A program made the position numbers and the translations under genes. A stretch of 12,923 nucleotides of DNA from a virus (taxonomy: Duplodnaviria; Heunggongvirae; Uroviricota; Caudoviricetes), in the IMG/VR virus record IMGVR_UViG_2534681651_000004, positions 1 to 12,923 of that record. One strand, given 5' to 3'. How positions within the stretch are numbered: position 1 is the first letter of the stretch; every line of letters begins with the position of its first letter. A model generated the notes under the pieces. It did not search any database. It was not told the origin of the DNA and was given only the letters and a program-made list of their open reading frames with translations. Below, piece by piece: positions 1,040 through 10,136 of this stretch.

Positions 1040-1325
1040 ATCATAACGTCCGGTTTCTTCCGTGCCAGAACCGGACTCGCTGGCATGATGAAATATGTGT
1101 ACCCGGTAACCCCGGTGTGCATCGTTTTTGATTATTCCCGCACACTCGCGCAGAAGGAGTTCCCCGTCGGGCTACGGTCTCTGTTAATACGGGAATACGG
1201 CGACGATACAGCGCATGATGTGTCAGGCTTGAATACCTTTATCCTTTAAAAGGGATATCAGTTAAGTTATCCCGTGTAGGGTATAAGCCATTATCAAGCC
1301 CACCCGTAGATAGGCTTTGTAATGG

Positions 1326-1583
1326 CTACTTCGCTTTTGCTTCCGCTCGCTTACGCCGGCGCTCTTCTTTCCTCTCGGCTTTTGCCATGTCCATGAATGC
1401 CTGCATGATCGAGTTCCGCATCATGTAGCTAACAAAGTGATGATTGACACAGCCGTTGAGGCGCAGCTGCTCGCCAAACTCATCCACCGAGGCCAATGCT
1501 TCCATCATGCCCTTCTCGCCTTTCATGAACTCTGAGAAGTCGCGCCCCGCTCTGGAGGCGCATTCAATAACACGATCACTCAT
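1326..1583 (-). CDS. Hypothetical 85-aa protein with a lysine/arginine-rich C-terminus, translationally coupled to the KilA-N gene
   Basis: Its ATG (1583..1581) overlaps the TGA stop of the upstream ORF (1582..1580) as ATGA. C-terminus is KAERKEERRRKRAEAKAK. Confidence 0.5.
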   Translation of the reverse strand: MSDRVIECASRAGRDFSEFMKGEKGMMEALASVDEFGEQLRLNGCVNHHFVSYMMRNSIMQAFMDMAKAERKEERRRKRAEAKAK

Positions 1584-2077
1584 CCCGGAAGCCCGGGGAT
1601 CGTAATCTGCAGCTGGTTAGCCAGGGAGTTAATCTCAGCGACCAACACTGGCTTCGTATAGCGCCATGCCGCCAGCCCTTGTCCGCAGAAGCTCGCCATA
1701 TCTTTTTTCTGATCAAACTCATGACACTTCATATTGAGCTGTGCACTTAAGCTGTTGCGATGCTGAAGTTCTCCGGTGAAGTAGTCATCCAGGACTTTAT
1801 AGGCTGCATATTTAAATCCGGGGTTTAGCCATGCTGCATAATCATAAGCAACAAACTTCCCGCCATATGTTCCACCGTGTACACCGCGCTCAGTAAAAAC
1901 CACAGATTCGTGGTTTTTCTCCAGCTCGGCTAAGAACTCTTTGGTCTGCTTGTTTCGCAGGTAGTGGTACGGAGATTCAGATTCACTTTTACCACTGGCT
2001 TTCCACATATCAGTGAGGCAGATCATGCCATCTTCACCGATACGAATTGGTTGATTGAAGAGGGTTAATGATTTCAT
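1580..2077 (-). CDS. KilA-N domain protein (antirepressor/Bro-N-like)
   Basis: 165 aa. Motifs ICLTDMWKASGK ... LRNKQTKEFLAELEK ... HGGTYGGKFVAYDYAAWLNPGF match the KilA-N pattern (ligand-binding N-terminus, GGTW.H core, WL.P.F). Confidence 0.7.
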   Translation of the reverse strand: MKSLTLFNQPIRIGEDGMICLTDMWKASGKSESESPYHYLRNKQTKEFLAELEKNHESVVFTERGVHGGTYGGKFVAYDYAAWLNPGFKYAAYKVLDDYFTGELQHRNSLSAQLNMKCHEFDQKKDMASFCGQGLAAWRYTKPVLVAEINSLANQLQITIPGLPG

Positions 2078-2281: not shown

Positions 2282-2734
2282 TTATTTCAGGCATTGCGTC
2301 CTGATGTACTCCTGCAGGTAGTTAACCTGCGCGGTTATCCTGTCGATTCCACTTCGGAGACGGTAATAATTGAGTTCAGCATCTGCTGTAAGTCTTGGGC
2401 TTTCTCCATCGCCCATGCTGCTGGCTCCGGTCTTTGACTTTGCACATGAGGCGGCGACTTGCAGCCGCTTACGCCCAGCAGAAACATCATCACGGAGACT
2501 TTCGATAGTCGCATTAGCATCAGCAAGCTCCTTTGTATATCTGGCATCGAGTTCTGCTACGTCACGTTGACGCTTCTGCATGTCAGCGATGATGGATGTG
2601 GCTTTGTCGCGCTGTTCTTTGTAGGTCATGGCGTTATCACGGTAATGATTAACAGCCCATGACAGGCAGACGATGATGCAGATAACCAGAGCATAAATAA
2701 TCACGGCAACTCTGCTCACTGCTCTATCCCCCAA
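2282..2734 (-). CDS. Rz: Rz i-spanin (inner-membrane spanin subunit)
   Basis: Strong similarity to lambda Rz ([34 protein letters not shown]; N-terminal TM helix, coiled-coil body). The likely true start is the GTG at 2719, which overlaps the endolysin TGA stop as GTGA; the ORF-track start at 2734 is a TTG. Confidence 0.85.
2335..2520 (-). CDS. Rz1: Rz1 o-spanin (outer-membrane lipoprotein spanin), embedded in the +1 frame of Rz
   Basis: Out-of-frame ORF lying wholly inside Rz. Signal peptide [20 protein letters not shown] with lipobox VSGC, then a proline-rich mature part ([16 protein letters not shown]). Start is chosen at an internal Met of the 70-aa track ORF; the exact start is uncertain. 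Confidence 0.7.
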
Positions 2735-3249
2735 CAGGCTAATGCGCTCTCCTGATCACGACGAATAACCTGACCGTAACAGTTATTTGAACGAAGGCGG
2801 CAATCGCGCCCCCTGTCCTTAATCCACCAGCGAATCGCCTCGCAGGCACCTTTACGATCACCTGCATTCAGCCGCTTATAAAATGTCGACGGAAAACACT
2901 TAGCGGGGCCAATGTTATAGGGACAAAATGACGCGATACCCGCTTTTTGTGGTTCGGTCAGTGTTACTTTAATATTGCGATCCACCCATGCCAGCGCCTT
3001 ATCACGCTCAATGGCATTAACCTGATCGCATTTTTCCTTCGTCAGTGTCATGCCCGGAATAACAGGTTTACCATCTACTATCGTGGCACCGCGACAGATG
3101 GTCCATATGCCGGAACCATCGCGGTATGCCGTAGTGTGGTTACCCTCTTTTTCATCCAGAAACTGGTCAAGTATCTCAGGAGCAGATGCGCCTGCTCCAA
3201 TCAGCGCCAGAACGGCCGCTGACAGGCCGTATTTGATTTTTGCGTTCAT
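2716..3249 (-). CDS. R: SAR endolysin (phage-21 R-type lysozyme, T4-lysozyme fold)
   Basis: 177 aa. N-terminal weakly hydrophobic Gly/Ala-rich signal-anchor-release segment ([18 protein letters not shown]). Catalytic E-x8-D-x5-T triad in [16 protein letters not shown]. Confidence 0.9.
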
Positions 3250-3354
3250 GGATATTTATCAGGATTTATCGGTTTCTGAACCCTGGATATGTTTATCTGC
3301 CCCGGCCTGTTGAATCAGGCGGGGAAAAGGTAAATACAATCAAGAGGATTATTT

Positions 3355-3627
3355 ATGGACAATAACACCATTTCTCTACAGGAGTTGCTCGACTGCATTT
3401 CCAGGCTTCGGGATGATGTAAATGCCCTCACTGTTGCATTTTCATATCTGGCCTTATCAATTCCCAGAGAACAAATGCAACCAACACTGGCATCGCTCCT
3501 GCTTGAATCACGCAACCCCAAATGGTCCCAGGAACAACAAAATTCTTTTAAGTGGCTGGCGGCATTACTGGAAGAAAAATATGCTGGTAAAATTACCATT
3601 TCGGTGGAGTCTTCAGAAAATCAGTAA
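3355..3627 (+). CDS. Hypothetical 90-aa protein encoded antisense to the lysis operon
   Basis: Good SD (AAGAGGA, 7 nt spacer) before the ATG at 3355. Protein-like composition with a predicted helical character. Its 3' end overlaps the 3' end of the minus-strand 3593..3937 gene by 35 bp. Confidence 0.45.
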   Translation: MDNNTISLQELLDCISRLRDDVNALTVAFSYLALSIPREQMQPTLASLLLESRNPKWSQEQQNSFKWLAALLEEKYAGKITISVESSENQ

Positions 3628-3937
3628 TTCTTCCTGGTAGCTTTCCTTTGTAGGTTATCCACACATTCTGCGCCTCTAAAATTACGGGGCGCTTTTCCGG
3701 CGACTGCTCATCCCCTTCACATAACCCGGCAGCAACATCCAGGAAGACCTGTCTGATGCTCCTTCTGGCTGCAGACTCATAAAACTCCAGCGCAGCACCT
3801 TCAACACGGTTCAGCGAGATGTCCAGGTCAAAAATTTCACCGTCAAAGCGTTTTTTGTCTTGTAATGCTACAGTTACCGCAACTTTATTCTCAAAATTGC
3901 GGATCCCTTTCACAATCAGTTCATAGTCTTGGGTCAT
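3593..3937 (-). CDS. Small phage protein inserted between holin and endolysin (YdfR/DUF1327-like by position)
   Basis: 114-aa ORF with an ATG start; a GAGGAG SD lies inside the end of the holin gene. Occupies the slot between S and R where Qin-type prophages carry ydfR. Confidence 0.6.
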   Translation of the reverse strand: MTQDYELIVKGIRNFENKVAVTVALQDKKRFDGEIFDLDISLNRVEGAALEFYESAARRSIRQVFLDVAAGLCEGDEQSPEKRPVILEAQNVWITYKGKLPGRITDFLKTPPKW

Positions 3938-3941
3938 TATA

Positions 3942-4157
3942 TTACTCTCCTCTCGCAGCCTTTCTTCTGTCTTCTCTGATTTTGAAGTACAGATTTGTCA
4001 GATAAGTCAAAAAACCCAGAACCAGGCTACCCAGCACACCTATTGCTGCCCACTGTGAGGGCGTGACTTTATCGAGCAGCTGTAAAAACCAGTAGCCAGC
4101 ACTGCCTGCGGAGGTGCCGTAGGCAATGCCTGTTGAAATTTTGTCCATGGATTTCAT
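3942..4157 (-). CDS. S: Pinholin (S21-type class II holin with dual start)
   Basis: [26 protein letters not shown]...[30 protein letters not shown] is near-identical to recalled phage-21 S21. Dual-start motif M-K-S-M, with a strong GGAGGTGA SD before the ATG at 4157. The ORF-track 90-aa version (start 4214) is probably over-extended. Confidence 0.85.
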
Positions 4158-4408: not shown

Positions 4409-4804
4409 CTAACCTCGCATGTCAAAGCCAGATTTCTGAAAATCTCTGTAGACTTCCGGATTGTTGAAGGCCGGAAATTTGGCTTTATGAGCTGCGGACT
4501 TTATCGCTTCGCAATAGGCTTTATCACCGTTACTGGTAGATATTTTTAACGCCGTGCCATCCTGAGAGAATTCCATATGCAACCTGCATTTTTTCCCTTT
4601 CCAGTTATGCGGCTCATCAAGTTGGGCATTAATTGCAGCTCTGATTCCCCGCGCTTGCGCCCCCCATTCATCCTGATCATCCCAGCGTCCTGAACTGCAA
4701 CTACCCGTAGCAGTAGTTTTGTGGCAATCTGAAGGGTGTAAAGGTGTGCATCCCGCAACAAAACCGACCCCAAAAGTCAACATAACGATTTTCTTTAATC
4801 CCAC
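4409..4804 (-). CDS. Lipoprotein with a TolA C-terminal (domain III)-like domain, divergent paralog
   Basis: GTG start with a GAGGAG SD. Signal peptide plus lipobox VAGC (MGLKKIVMLTFGVGFVAGC). C-terminal region ...KGKKCRLHMEFSQDGTALKISTSNGDKAYCEAIKSAAHKAKFPAFNNPEVYRDFQKSGFDMRG shares the two Cys and the PEVY..FQ motif with the neighbouring paralog and with TolA domain III. Confidence 0.75.
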   Translation of the reverse strand: MGLKKIVMLTFGVGFVAGCTPLHPSDCHKTTATGSCSSGRWDDQDEWGAQARGIRAAINAQLDEPHNWKGKKCRLHMEFSQDGTALKISTSNGDKAYCEAIKSAAHKAKFPAFNNPEVYRDFQKSGFDMRG

Positions 4805-4954: not shown

Positions 4955-5383
4955 TCAGGGTTTAAAATCCAGCACCCCATTTTGAAATACTTTATATACT
5001 TCCGGCGAAGGGGGGGCAGGTATATCAGCATTCTTTATCGCATTCATCGCTTCACGACATAAATCGAGGTCTCCACTTTCTCTTTTAACCTCCAGTAGAA
5101 GGCCATTCGGGGCCATATGCATTCTCAGTGTACACTCTTTTCCTGAATACTTACTCGCATCCCCGAACTGTTTTTCGATGGCGCTCTTGATTTGATGGGC
5201 ATACAGACGGATATCCTCACTAACATCAGAAGTACGTTCAGATGAACTCACATACTGTGTCTCTATTGCTTTATCGGAGTAATATGATGTACGGTCATGA
5301 TAATTTGTCGATACAGCATCAGTGCACCCGATAATAATCCCACTAATAATCAACATAAGAATTGATGCGCTACGAAAACCCAT
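4955..5383 (-). CDS. Lipoprotein with a TolA C-terminal (domain III)-like domain
   Basis: ATG start with a GAGGA SD. Signal peptide plus lipobox IIGC (MGFRSASILMLIISGIIIGC). C-terminus YAHQIKSAIEKQFGDASKYSGKECTLRMHMAPNGLLLEVKRESGDLDLCREAMNAIKNADIPAPPSPEVYKVFQNGVLDFKP closely matches the recalled E. coli TolA C-terminus (YAGQIKSAIESKFYDASSYAGKTCTLRIKLAPDGMLLDIKPEGGDPALCQAALAAAKLAKIPKPPSQAVYEVFKNAPLDFKP). Confidence 0.8.
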   Translation of the reverse strand: MGFRSASILMLIISGIIIGCTDAVSTNYHDRTSYYSDKAIETQYVSSSERTSDVSEDIRLYAHQIKSAIEKQFGDASKYSGKECTLRMHMAPNGLLLEVKRESGDLDLCREAMNAIKNADIPAPPSPEVYKVFQNGVLDFKP

Positions 5384-5916
5384 TTTTCCTCACATATGTC
5401 ATATAGTAAAGGATTATATATACCGTTGTTTTGGACGCTCAAACAGCGAATCAGATCAAATAAAACGCACATTTGTTAACATTTACACAAAGGCTGCGTG
5501 GAATATTCTGAAAGAATATCCATAATGTGGAGAGAATCTATTGAAGTGCATGGTGCCGGGTGCCTCCCGGTGAATTCAGTACCAGCACCTGAATCCGCGA
5601 TTATCCCATATACCTACTCGCTGATTGCCCCTCCGCACAGGGGGATTCACCATGCCAGTTTCTTTTAACAAACTCCCCGCAAACCAGAGAACAGTCAACC
5701 GCCTGAATTGTGAAGTATTTAAAAATTTCTCCCGCTAACTGATACCCGGCTAACAGTCTGGCGTTTTCTTTTTCAGCAACGGGAAAGCAACAACCACCAC
5801 ACCCGCCACCAGCACACCGTCAGCCAGCACTGACATTATCCGGCTGCTGCAATGCCATTCACAAAAACAGTAAGCAATCACTTTTTACCGTAACAGGTGA
5901 TAATCCAGATATGTAT

Positions 5917-6776: not shown

Positions 6777-7598
6777 TTACCTAGTTACCTTTTTTAACTG
6801 CCGCTCAGCCCATGCTTCTTCAATATCAAACCGGGTCACCAGCGCATCATAGAATTTCTTAACTGTTTTTTCCCATGACGCGCGTGTTATCTGGTTTGTC
6901 ACCTCGCATATAGCATTAAATGCCTCCGTTGATGGTAGTCTTTCATAGCCACGACCACCACAACGCTGGCAGTCTCTGATAACAGGCATACCACGTTTTA
7001 CCGACTCTTCACGGTGAATGGCGACACCACGCCCACGGCAATCCTTACAGGCGGTGGAAACCTCACCCTTTCCGCCACACTCCGGACAGGCAACTTTTAC
7101 CACCTCCCTGACTTTTTTCCATTCTTCCCAGTAAGACGGATACACACCTTTCGTACACTTTGCCCATACCGGCGGCTTACCATCCGGATACTGGACCTTG
7201 TTTGTAAAAACTACGCTTTCAATAAATTTTTCCCCATAGCAACAAGGGCACTGCTTTTTACTCGCTGCGCTGCGGGCATAATCCTCAAAAGCGTACGAAG
7301 CCATAATGCGCATCACTACCGGTTTTATTTCTGCCGGAAGTTTTCTCAACGCCGCCACACGATCGCACCGACTGAGTGCATAATCTGCCAGTAATTCTGT
7401 TGCCCGCGCCCTGTCATTCATACTGATGCCCATTTTCCCCAGGAACGCAGAAAACCCCATCTCAGCCCGATTCTGTGTCATGCCCTGCGCGGCCATCACA
7501 TCAGTGATACTCAGCGCATCTTTTGACGTTGAAGCCGATGCATCGGTCAGGCAAGGGGATTTTGGGGAGTAGTATTTCGGTAAATCTTCCAGTTTCAT
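6777..7598 (-). CDS. Q: Late antitermination protein Q (Phage_antitermQ family)
   Basis: 273 aa with multiple CxxC zinc-ribbon motifs (CPCCYGEK, CPECGGKG, CKDCRGRG, CQRCGGRG). Sits directly upstream of pR'/tR'. Its ATG overlaps the RusA TGA stop as ATGA. Confidence 0.8.
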   Translation of the reverse strand: MKLEDLPKYYSPKSPCLTDASASTSKDALSITDVMAAQGMTQNRAEMGFSAFLGKMGISMNDRARATELLADYALSRCDRVAALRKLPAEIKPVVMRIMASYAFEDYARSAASKKQCPCCYGEKFIESVVFTNKVQYPDGKPPVWAKCTKGVYPSYWEEWKKVREVVKVACPECGGKGEVSTACKDCRGRGVAIHREESVKRGMPVIRDCQRCGGRGYERLPSTEAFNAICEVTNQITRASWEKTVKKFYDALVTRFDIEEAWAERQLKKVTR

Positions 7599-9769: not shown

Positions 9770-9925
9770 TTACTCCTCAGGTTCGTAGACTGTGAAGACA
9801 GCGACCTCCGTCTGGCCGGTTCGGATTCGTACCTCGCAGAGGTCTTTCCTCGTTACCAGTGCCGTCACTATGACGGTTAAACAGATGACGATCAGGGCGA
9901 TTAACATCGCCTTTTGCTGCTTCAT
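9770..9925 (-). CDS. hok: Hok-family type I toxin (HokD/RelF-like)
   Basis: MKQQKAMLIALIVICLTVIVTALVTRKDLCEVRIRTGQTEVAVFTVYEPEE is near-identical to recalled HokD. AAGGAG SD upstream of the ATG at 9925. The 70-aa ORF-track version (start 9982) is an in-frame upstream extension, possibly mok-like. Confidence 0.9.
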   Translation of the reverse strand: MKQQKAMLIALIVICLTVIVTALVTRKDLCEVRIRTGQTEVAVFTVYEPEE

Positions 9926-10136
9926 AGCCTGCTTCTCCTTGCCTTTCGGCACGTAAGAGGCTAACCTAGATTTGCCGTTCATAGATTGAGCCTCAGATTA
10001 ATGTTAAGCGTCTTGCAGGACGCGTAATGTTAACTGGGGCTTTTCTCTATCTGCCTTTGGTGTTCATGCCTGAGACAGATAGCCTCAAGCACCCGCAGCC
10101 ATTCTACTTAACTCCCGTCACCTGGCCAATATAAAA

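Follow-up and report, generated by a model that had tools for sequence, protein, structure and literature searches.

A small open reading frame (ORF) at positions 3355-3627 (+) of the virus record IMGVR_UViG_2534681651_000004 runs against the late genes of a lambdoid prophage of E. coli, and, based on its pattern of variation and its homologues, it is a real, selected small-protein gene whose product is under purifying selection. The window (the whole stretch of 12,923 nucleotides analysed here) covers the late region of this prophage and is 100% identical to E. coli strain AST215. The gene belongs to a known kind, the morons, or antisense genes in noncontiguous operons; morons are accessory genes with transcription of their own that sit within or next to late operons and are expressed from the prophage (PMC3594210). 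The gene is probably carried as cargo by a moron cassette of the HK022 gp23 ('srb') type, in reverse orientation. Matching with a covariance model showed homology between the 110 nt upstream of the ORF and a conserved leader found ahead of many unrelated small antisense genes. Neither the structured leader common to these genes nor the arrangement of convergent partners that goes with it has been described, to judge from Rfam and the literature searched.

The 90-aa ORF and its coding strand

The ORF opens with an ATG at 3355 and ends with a stop codon at 3625-3627, and a Shine-Dalgarno sequence, AAGAGGA (3342-3348, +), is read 6 nt 5' of the ATG. An earlier note on the window had described this ORF of 90 aa with its Shine-Dalgarno sequence, its place between the endolysin gene (2716-3249, -) and the gene after the holin, and a 35-bp overlap of its 3' end with the latter, all of which were verified; the post-holin gene is ydfR (3593-3937, -), and the two genes converge 3' to 3' over 3593-3627. 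The orientation against the Q-dependent late operon was confirmed as well, with Q, S, ydfR, R and Rz all on the minus strand and the ORF as the sole plus-strand gene within the minus-strand late run. The ORF is already annotated in RefSeq as 'hypothetical protein' WP_001390122.1 (Prokaryotic Genome Annotation Pipeline, identical E. coli chromosome), and it matched phrog_2411 over its full length (positions 1-90 of 90, E 3.6e-57).

Twenty-eight distinct haplotypes without indels were obtained from 84 related loci. The plus-strand ORF was intact in 27 of the 28, in a sample that was chosen by protein similarity and is therefore biased towards intact copies, and the remaining haplotype carries a stop at codon 35. 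Variable columns at codon positions 1, 2 and 3 numbered 11, 12 and 28, respectively, pairwise dN/dS of the ORF was mostly 0.1-0.5, and within codons 1-30 six of the eight variable sites were synonymous. The GAGG core of the Shine-Dalgarno sequence was invariant in all haplotypes, and positions 3342-3343 vary. Conservation, dN/dS and the profile search of the protein, which the earlier note had proposed as checks, all favoured a coding gene.

A minus-strand ORF of 94 aa (3315-3599) overlaps the gene, and it had been considered in that note as possibly the conserved one instead. It carries internal stops or lacks a start codon in relatives (haplogroups of the L083, L040, L069 and L058 type), no family match was found for it in Pfam, NCBIfam or phrog searches, and it is not a gene. 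Because the plus frame and this shadow frame share third codon positions, dN/dS and the third-position bias indicate constraint and not strand; dN/dS was therefore rejected as a means of telling the two frames apart, and stop codons and homologues were used instead. By the stop codons of the shadow ORF and the existence of real protein homologues, the strand of the gene is settled as plus. Sixty-five homologues were found for the WP_001390122 protein family, and the divergent ones, from other Enterobacterales, are 28-43% identical at the protein level, with unrelated DNA, and have the motif ELLDxISxLRxxVNxLxxAFSYLAFS in common. Scans with P0067 or P0081 as single proteins contributed little more.

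The protein is acidic, without signal peptide or transmembrane segment, and is predicted to form three helices, which were placed at residues 8-34, 38-52 and 59-77 in the AlphaFold2 model (mean confidence, pLDDT, 79). Residues 1-78 are structured in this model, and the tail of residues 80-90 (pLDDT <50) is predicted to be disordered. The final ~9 codons run antisense to the conserved end of ydfR (...ITDFLKTPP). Frameshift alleles recur at ~3525-3535, right after ...PKWS, at the run CAGGAACAACAAAA; those of P0041, P0048 and P0051 encode 94-aa proteins that end in the +2 frame, and other alleles are 56-aa truncations or 50-aa forms starting at M41.

The presence/absence segment and its conserved leader

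The ORF lies in a presence/absence segment of ~290 bp (~3308-3601), as delimited by alignment with ON470583. Many sister phages, vB_EcoS-689R5 among them, share S, ydfR and R with this prophage and lack the segment, leaving a ydfR-R gap of 63 bp, and such relatives give two-piece matches that are ~274 bp shorter; the segment is thus extra DNA between conserved genes, missing in related phages, as is typical of morons. Only a 5' stub of the leader is kept in the segment-less phages, and it scores 10.7 bits with the leader covariance model described below (R1). The segment was found in 1125 of 5426 complete E. coli genomes (21%) and in three isolated phages, and plaque-forming phages are among its carriers. 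Its GC content of 42-44% differs modestly from the 47-51% of S, ydfR, R and Rz. In phiSTEC1575-Stx2k the segment travels with the holin gene and ydfR and adjoins a different endolysin module. The same ydfR/R junction is occupied in 2H10, PhiR5_1 and Stx phages by an unrelated plus-strand ORF of 86 aa (MDYTNLPK..., phrog_2572; the MDY cargo), which lies at 1158-1424 (+) of L004 (2H10) and 1662-1922 (+) of L088 (PhiR5_1) and is preceded by the same leader. In E. coli AZ186, the IS3-family insertion sequence ISEc52 (L087 1257-2426) is inserted between the endolysin gene and the plus-strand ORF, at about window position 3328, and separates the ORF from its leader and putative promoter.

The leader family was recognized from shared blocks found by comparing the regions upstream of divergent homologues. 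A pattern of a 17-nt block, GGRATGGCTGATWAMCT, was present in no fewer than 120 viral contigs; the complete element of ~110 nt is found in about 90 of them. The 5' part of the element comprises a near-palindrome (ACTGwTCnnwTrTCAGG), a -35-like block (GTTrCT), a -10-like block (CCCTGGwTAwGkT) and UCAGCC, and the 3' part comprises hairpin 1, hairpin 2 with the loop GAUGGCUGAUUA, AAGGA and the start codon. The covariance model R1 was built from 49 non-redundant copies, and covariation was assessed in the same set. Compensatory changes were found at six of the eight pairs of hairpin 1, with 96% of the cells paired, and the observed level of covariation was reached by none of 500 shuffles. The stem of hairpin 2 covaries also (GAGG/CCUC, GAAG/CUUC, UAAG/CUUA, GGAG/CUCC). 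RNAalifold paired UCAGCC with the GGCUGA of the hairpin-2 loop, and this loop may pair with the 5' UCAGCC, a pairing that is unproven; both sides are near-invariant, even in copies recovered by an independent pattern, with one wobble-compatible and zero compensatory changes. No Rfam 15 match at the gathering threshold was obtained for the leader region of the window or for eight loci with a full leader. A leader peptide from the ATG in the hairpin-2 loop was considered and rejected, because ATA, CTG, GTG, AAG or TAG stands there in other copies and GGCUG is kept. A LexA box upstream was rejected as well, because the palindrome CTG-N9-CAG falls short of the SOS box of E. coli by one base. The stretch TATCAGGnTGTTr may be an IHF site, by its resemblance to the consensus.

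The leader precedes at least 18 unrelated small cargo families, the cargo ORFs forming 18 sequence clusters, most of which encode 57-100 aa; a DUF1883 family, a zinc-ribbon protein and a 210-aa family are among them. Nearly all cargos are oriented against phage late genes (tail, lysis or packaging), and 72 of 92 upstream neighbours and 82 of 89 downstream neighbours of the leader cassettes are encoded on the opposite strand. Phages in GenBank that carry the element include HK022, HK633, mEp213/mEp043, ES18 and SPN3UB. R1 scored 148 bits at HK022 gp23, 139 and 114 bits upstream of P0070 and P0067 (homologues of the window protein with 36-39% identity), and 52 and 36 bits upstream of the MDY cargo, and it also matched upstream of the Citrobacter homologue. 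Profile comparison with hhalign showed weak similarity of the window family to two other helical cargo clusters (P = 1.4e-4 and 0.0015), faint signals for a possible superfamily of all helical cargos. In the environmental contig L113, an R1 leader (2042-2186, +) precedes a DUF1883 gene, and a 106-aa homologue of the window protein (3001-3321, +) lies two genes downstream of this gene on the same strand.

In the window, R1 gave a single hit (3242-3365, +; 37 bits, E about 5e-7), and the diverged leader copy, which includes the promoter region and the 5' untranslated region, extends from 3242 to 3354 (+), its 5' end overlapping CAT (3247-3249), the opposite-strand start codon of the endolysin gene. 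The copy matches the leader model including the covarying hairpin 1, and hairpin 2 with its GGCUGA loop is missing, 20 model positions of it being replaced by 3 nt; UCAGCC reads UCUGCC. Hairpin 1 (3300-3324, +) is formed by CCCCGGCCUG and CAGGCGGGG around the loop UUGAAU, has a folding energy of -16.9 kcal/mol (z = -2.9) and aligns to the covarying hairpin of the family, and its stem is retained with different bases in L111. From the positions of the leader blocks CCCTGGwTAwGkT and GTTrCT, a putative weak sigma-70 promoter was placed at 3266-3293 (+), with the -35 hexamer TTATCG (3266-3271), a 16-nt spacer and the -10 hexamer TATGTT (3288-3293), and with a predicted start near 3300. Both hexamers were invariant in the 28 E. 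coli haplotypes, against variation in 11 of the 58 columns around them. A terminator-like hairpin with a T-run behind it was also seen on the plus strand at 3212-3230, inside the 5' end of the endolysin gene and just upstream of the leader, and it would insulate the cassette from antisense transcripts arriving from the left.

The cassette may work as follows. With a weak sigma-70 promoter of its own, it would let the repressed prophage make the protein without need of Q. Once the prophage is induced, polymerase modified by Q would traverse the cargo gene in antisense between ydfR and the endolysin gene and lower cargo expression, as in the tai/ati pair of phi80. The cargo product would exert its effect as a protein, probably through binding to another protein, and not as an RNA.

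The lysis location of the window copy appears incidental, because homologues were found at tail, terminase and chromosomal sites. The homologue P0070 lies between the tail genes L and M, P0067 beside the terminase genes and P0081 upstream of the holin gene in Citrobacter, and another divergent homologue adjoins an autotransporter gene; the prophage homologues run against the late genes. The chromosomal orthologues have a syntenic place, pyrC-dinI-[gene]-bssS-solA, in Serratia, Chimaeribacter and related bacteria (L099 4001-4282, L100-L102, L106-L108, L118-L120), and E. coli is not known to have a gene at this position of the K-12 map. These orthologues (e.g., P0084, P0101, P0106, P0118) are 33-39% identical to the window cargo, equal in length and have the same helix-1 motif, but they are chromosomal, stand alone on the same strand as their neighbours and lack an R1 leader, having instead a different upstream region of their own after the dinI terminator. 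The dinI gene beside the Serratia orthologue has a true LexA box, but the orthologue sits behind the dinI terminator.

Partner genes, rival explanations and the possible role of the cargo

The window cargo is opposite to the late genes and meets a convergent late-strand ORF at its 3' end, and the same layout was found throughout the leader family. A convergent late-strand ORF of at least 45 aa ends in or just past the 3' end of the cargo in 93 of 106 distinct leader cassettes, most of which show a 3'-3' overlap, mostly of 4-54 nt. Many of these partners begin with MTLEQRVEALEK... and have variable C-termini (28 distinct), and others are DUF1327-like, as is YdfR, and accompany three other cargo types. 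DUF1883 cargos are always paired with one co-diverging partner family (..NGGExIW..LKDGTQQKI). The N-terminus of a partner can be common to several cassettes while its C-terminus changes with the cargo, and YdfR behaves in the same way: it ends in ESQP* where no cargo is present, in KW* in the window and with 75-95 additional aa beside the MDY cargo, and the last residues of the window YdfR after ...KTPP (KW*) are encoded within the cassette. Cargo and convergent partner, by their layout, look like a two-gene module. Examples of partner genes are found at L092 5261-5476 (-), L103 4239-4430 (-) and L245 1147-1305 (-), and in many of the loci L123-L242. No functional study was found in a literature search for ydfR, ybl58, DUF1327 or HK022 srb/gp23.

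Several observations weigh against the ORF being the expressed cargo of a moron cassette. The inferred promoter is weak, its hexamers matching at three and four of six positions, and a generic consensus promoter scan found none on the plus strand upstream of the ORF; the promoter search proposed in the earlier note was negative by consensus, and leader homology pointed to a putative weak promoter. No canonical terminator was found after the ORF stop, and beyond it, within ydfR, lies only a stem of 7 bp followed by a U4 tail, the fold of which is unexceptional (z = -1.25). The leader is most conserved in hairpin 2 and its GGCUGA loop, which are missing here, and the window copy may be a decayed, poorly expressed version. 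The 90-aa protein belongs to no family in Pfam, NCBIfam or PADLOC, the last of which gave no defence-family match, and a PDB sequence search and Foldseek searches of PDB and BFVD returned non-significant helical matches only. BLASTP of the window proteins against orf63 and orf64 of phi80, the Tai/Ati pair, produced no alignment. Frameshifted, truncated and N-terminally shortened alleles occur at low frequency, and because such alleles circulate and one haplotype has the stop at codon 35, the gene is dispensable for the prophage.

The deleted hairpin 2 and its loop, the weak promoter match, the damaged alleles and the leader stubs of the sister phages could all be explained if the cassette were a non-functional remnant, a decaying passenger in which the ORF is open yet no longer expressed. 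However, the leader without hairpin 2 is conserved, together with an intact ORF, in haplotypes of E. coli, E. albertii, E. ruysiae and Shigella whose synonymous divergence reaches ~20%, dN/dS stays far below 1, and plaque-forming phages carry the ORF, which makes decay quite improbable. We give as little weight to a brake at the RNA level, by which the plus-strand transcript would damp leaky expression of the holin gene, ydfR and the endolysin gene in the lysogen by collision or pairing, with the ORF being secondary. The geometry is convergent with ydfR and S, transcripts could enter ydfR and the holin gene when no clear terminator follows the ORF, and antisense interference is documented in noncontiguous operons. 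But selection acts on the amino-acid sequence and protein homologues of 30-40% identity have unrelated DNA, the same cargo and leader are found at tail, terminase and chromosomal sites, many sister phages have the same S-ydfR-R genes without the segment, and the HK022 archetype terminates right after the ORF, a design that limits antisense read-out. Of the two interpretations in the earlier note, a lysogeny-expressed cargo gene is consistent with the segment, the leader and the phi80 precedent, and the antisense brake on premature lysis-gene expression has found no support, given the selected protein, the non-lysis sites of cargo and leader, and the sister phages that manage the same lysis genes without the segment.

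A defence/counter-defence module is a less remote alternative, but still rather unlikely. Here the cargo would be an anti-phage protein of the lysogen, blocking for example assembly or entry, and would be neutralised by late-expressed YdfR, in the manner of Tai/Ati, for which a published precedent exists. The convergent ORFs that overlap or abut the cargo 3' end in 93 of the 106 cassettes argue for it, and so do partner families that track and co-diverge with cargo families such as DUF1883, partner C-termini that switch with the cargo behind common N-termini (MTLEQRVEALEK.. or DUF1327) and the DUF1327-like partners of three other cargo types; the insertion sequence between R and the ORF in AZ186 recalls the knock-outs of tai by insertion sequences. 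On the other side, ydfR is widespread without the cargo, the window YdfR extends only 2 residues past the common ...KTPP and therefore has no cargo-specific domain, homologues of the cargo pair with unrelated partners, and the syntenic chromosomal orthologues of Serratia have no such partner; neither a PADLOC match nor homology to Tai/Ati was found.

If the ORF is the cargo of a moron cassette, as we consider probable, its role may be that of an anti-phage or exclusion factor or that of a modulator of host stress or biofilm physiology, and we give the two roughly equal weight. The first role is suggested by the diversity of the cargos, the hotspot location, the co-divergence of the partners and the published precedents, the second by the core chromosomal orthologues that lie between dinI and bssS. 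More tentatively, and with somewhat less than even confidence, we propose a widespread modular system of temperate Enterobacterales phages, in which a promoter and structured leader would drive at least 18 antisense late-operon cargos, each convergent with a late-strand partner whose N-terminus is conserved and whose C-terminus is specific to the cargo. Cassettes would be exchanged by recombination at the conserved ends, the leader would be a regulatory RNA, and the cargo/partner pairs would form functional couples that are ON in lysogeny and OFF in lysis. The gene is present in one fifth of complete E. coli genomes and is annotated merely as 'hypothetical', and its placement among the morons gives an expression logic that can be tested, by which the gene would be active in the lysogen and, once the prophage is induced, traversed in antisense by Q-dependent transcription. 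A sequence handle for a systematic search for lysogeny-expressed prophage genes is provided by R1 or the pattern GGRATGGCTGATWAMCT, and the genes behind the leader are candidate anti-phage or host-modulating factors. The leader itself is a candidate new cis-regulatory RNA, absent from Rfam, and this by-product may outweigh the gene in importance.

Late-region context and comparison with known systems

The minus-strand order in the window is Q, two tRNAs, two cargo genes with a TolA C-terminal domain, the S holin gene, ydfR, the site of the plus-strand ORF, R and Rz/Rz1. Q is the antiterminator gene (6777-7598, -), S encodes a class II holin of the S21 type (3942-4157, or to 4214, -; Pfam Phage_holin_2_1, RefSeq coordinates), ydfR was assigned by its match to Pfam DUF1327 (E 3e-42), R, the next late gene beyond the cassette, encodes a phage lysozyme of the signal-arrest-release type (Pfam Phage_lysozyme, RefSeq), and Rz/Rz1 lies at 2282-2734 (-). 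By this gene order, an antisense gene is nested in a Q-dependent late operon, which is the layout of a noncontiguous operon. The two TolA-domain genes (4409-4804 and 4955-5383, both -) are paralogous, have lipoprotein-like N-termini and, placed between Q/tRNAs and the holin gene, are late-strand cargo of the late operon. Rfam matches in the window were the sRNA STnc100 (5494-5684, -; 111 bits) and the sok antitoxin RNA (9770-10094, -), which adjoins a hok-like ORF (9770-9982). A KilA-N domain protein encoded downstream of Rz (1580-2077, -) matched the candidate system PDC-S22 in PADLOC (E 1e-8).

A related logic is found in Staphylococcus aureus prophages, where the nested antisense gene of tha/ith has its own promoter and mutual transcriptional interference ties its expression to the switch between lysogeny and lysis (Rostol et al. 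2024, PMC11087260). The window shares with tha/ith an antisense gene nested in an operon, but tha/ith lies in the lysogeny (cI) operon and not in a late operon, its proteins and host are unrelated, and the antisense gene there encodes the inhibitor and not the lysogeny-expressed factor. Lambda bor, HK97 gp15 and Cor resemble the window gene in setting, as accessory, prophage-expressed genes in or beside late operons near lysis genes, and lambda bor lies on the strand opposite to late transcription. Their products are membrane proteins or lipoproteins with known phenotypes, and they have neither leader nor sequence relation in common with the window cargo. The moron concept (Juhala et al. 2000; Cumby et al. 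2012, PMC3594210) fits the window cassette except for the missing clear terminator.

The tai/ati pair of phi80 is a precedent for the proposed expression logic. The taiEcA gene runs opposite to the Q-dependent operon in which it lies; it is active in the lysogen and lowered by Q (PMC11364771), and the adjacent late gene atiEcA counteracts it, in a layout that was named 'noncontiguous operon' (He et al. 2024, PMC11364771). As in the window, an opposite-strand gene interrupts a Q-dependent late operon beside lysis and packaging genes. On the other hand, tai and ati are divergent and overlap at their 5' ends, whereas the window cargo and ydfR are convergent and overlap at their 3' ends; TaiEcA has 204 aa and AtiEcA 76 aa, and defence activity has been demonstrated for Tai. 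The R1 match in phi80 is weak (16 bits), and the possibility that tai carries the leader was rejected on this ground; the possibility that the 210-aa leader cargo is TaiEcA was rejected also, with no tblastn match to phi80.

The annotated archetype of the cassette is gene 23 of HK022, described as 'srb protein; moron gene product' (NC_002166 13751-13972). Both cassettes have the same leader (R1 148 bits in HK022 vs 37 bits in the window), both are extra DNA between conserved late genes, and in both a small helical cargo lies opposite to the late genes and is convergent with a small late-strand ORF, which is gp22 in HK022. The two cargo proteins have no detectable BLAST similarity, and a weak profile similarity (hhalign P = 0.0015) extends over the ...VxALxxAFxxL..P.. 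helix. Gene 23 differs in lying between I- and J-like tail genes and not in a lysis cassette, in retaining hairpin 2 with the GGCUGA loop, and in having a clear terminator right after the ORF as well as a late-strand terminator at the left border. The latter is an intrinsic terminator (L243 1468-1495; GCCACC-N4-GGTGGC followed by T7) directly upstream of the J start, and its 3' arm is the conserved GGCUAC that opens the leader, which is located at L243 1486-1630 in HK022.

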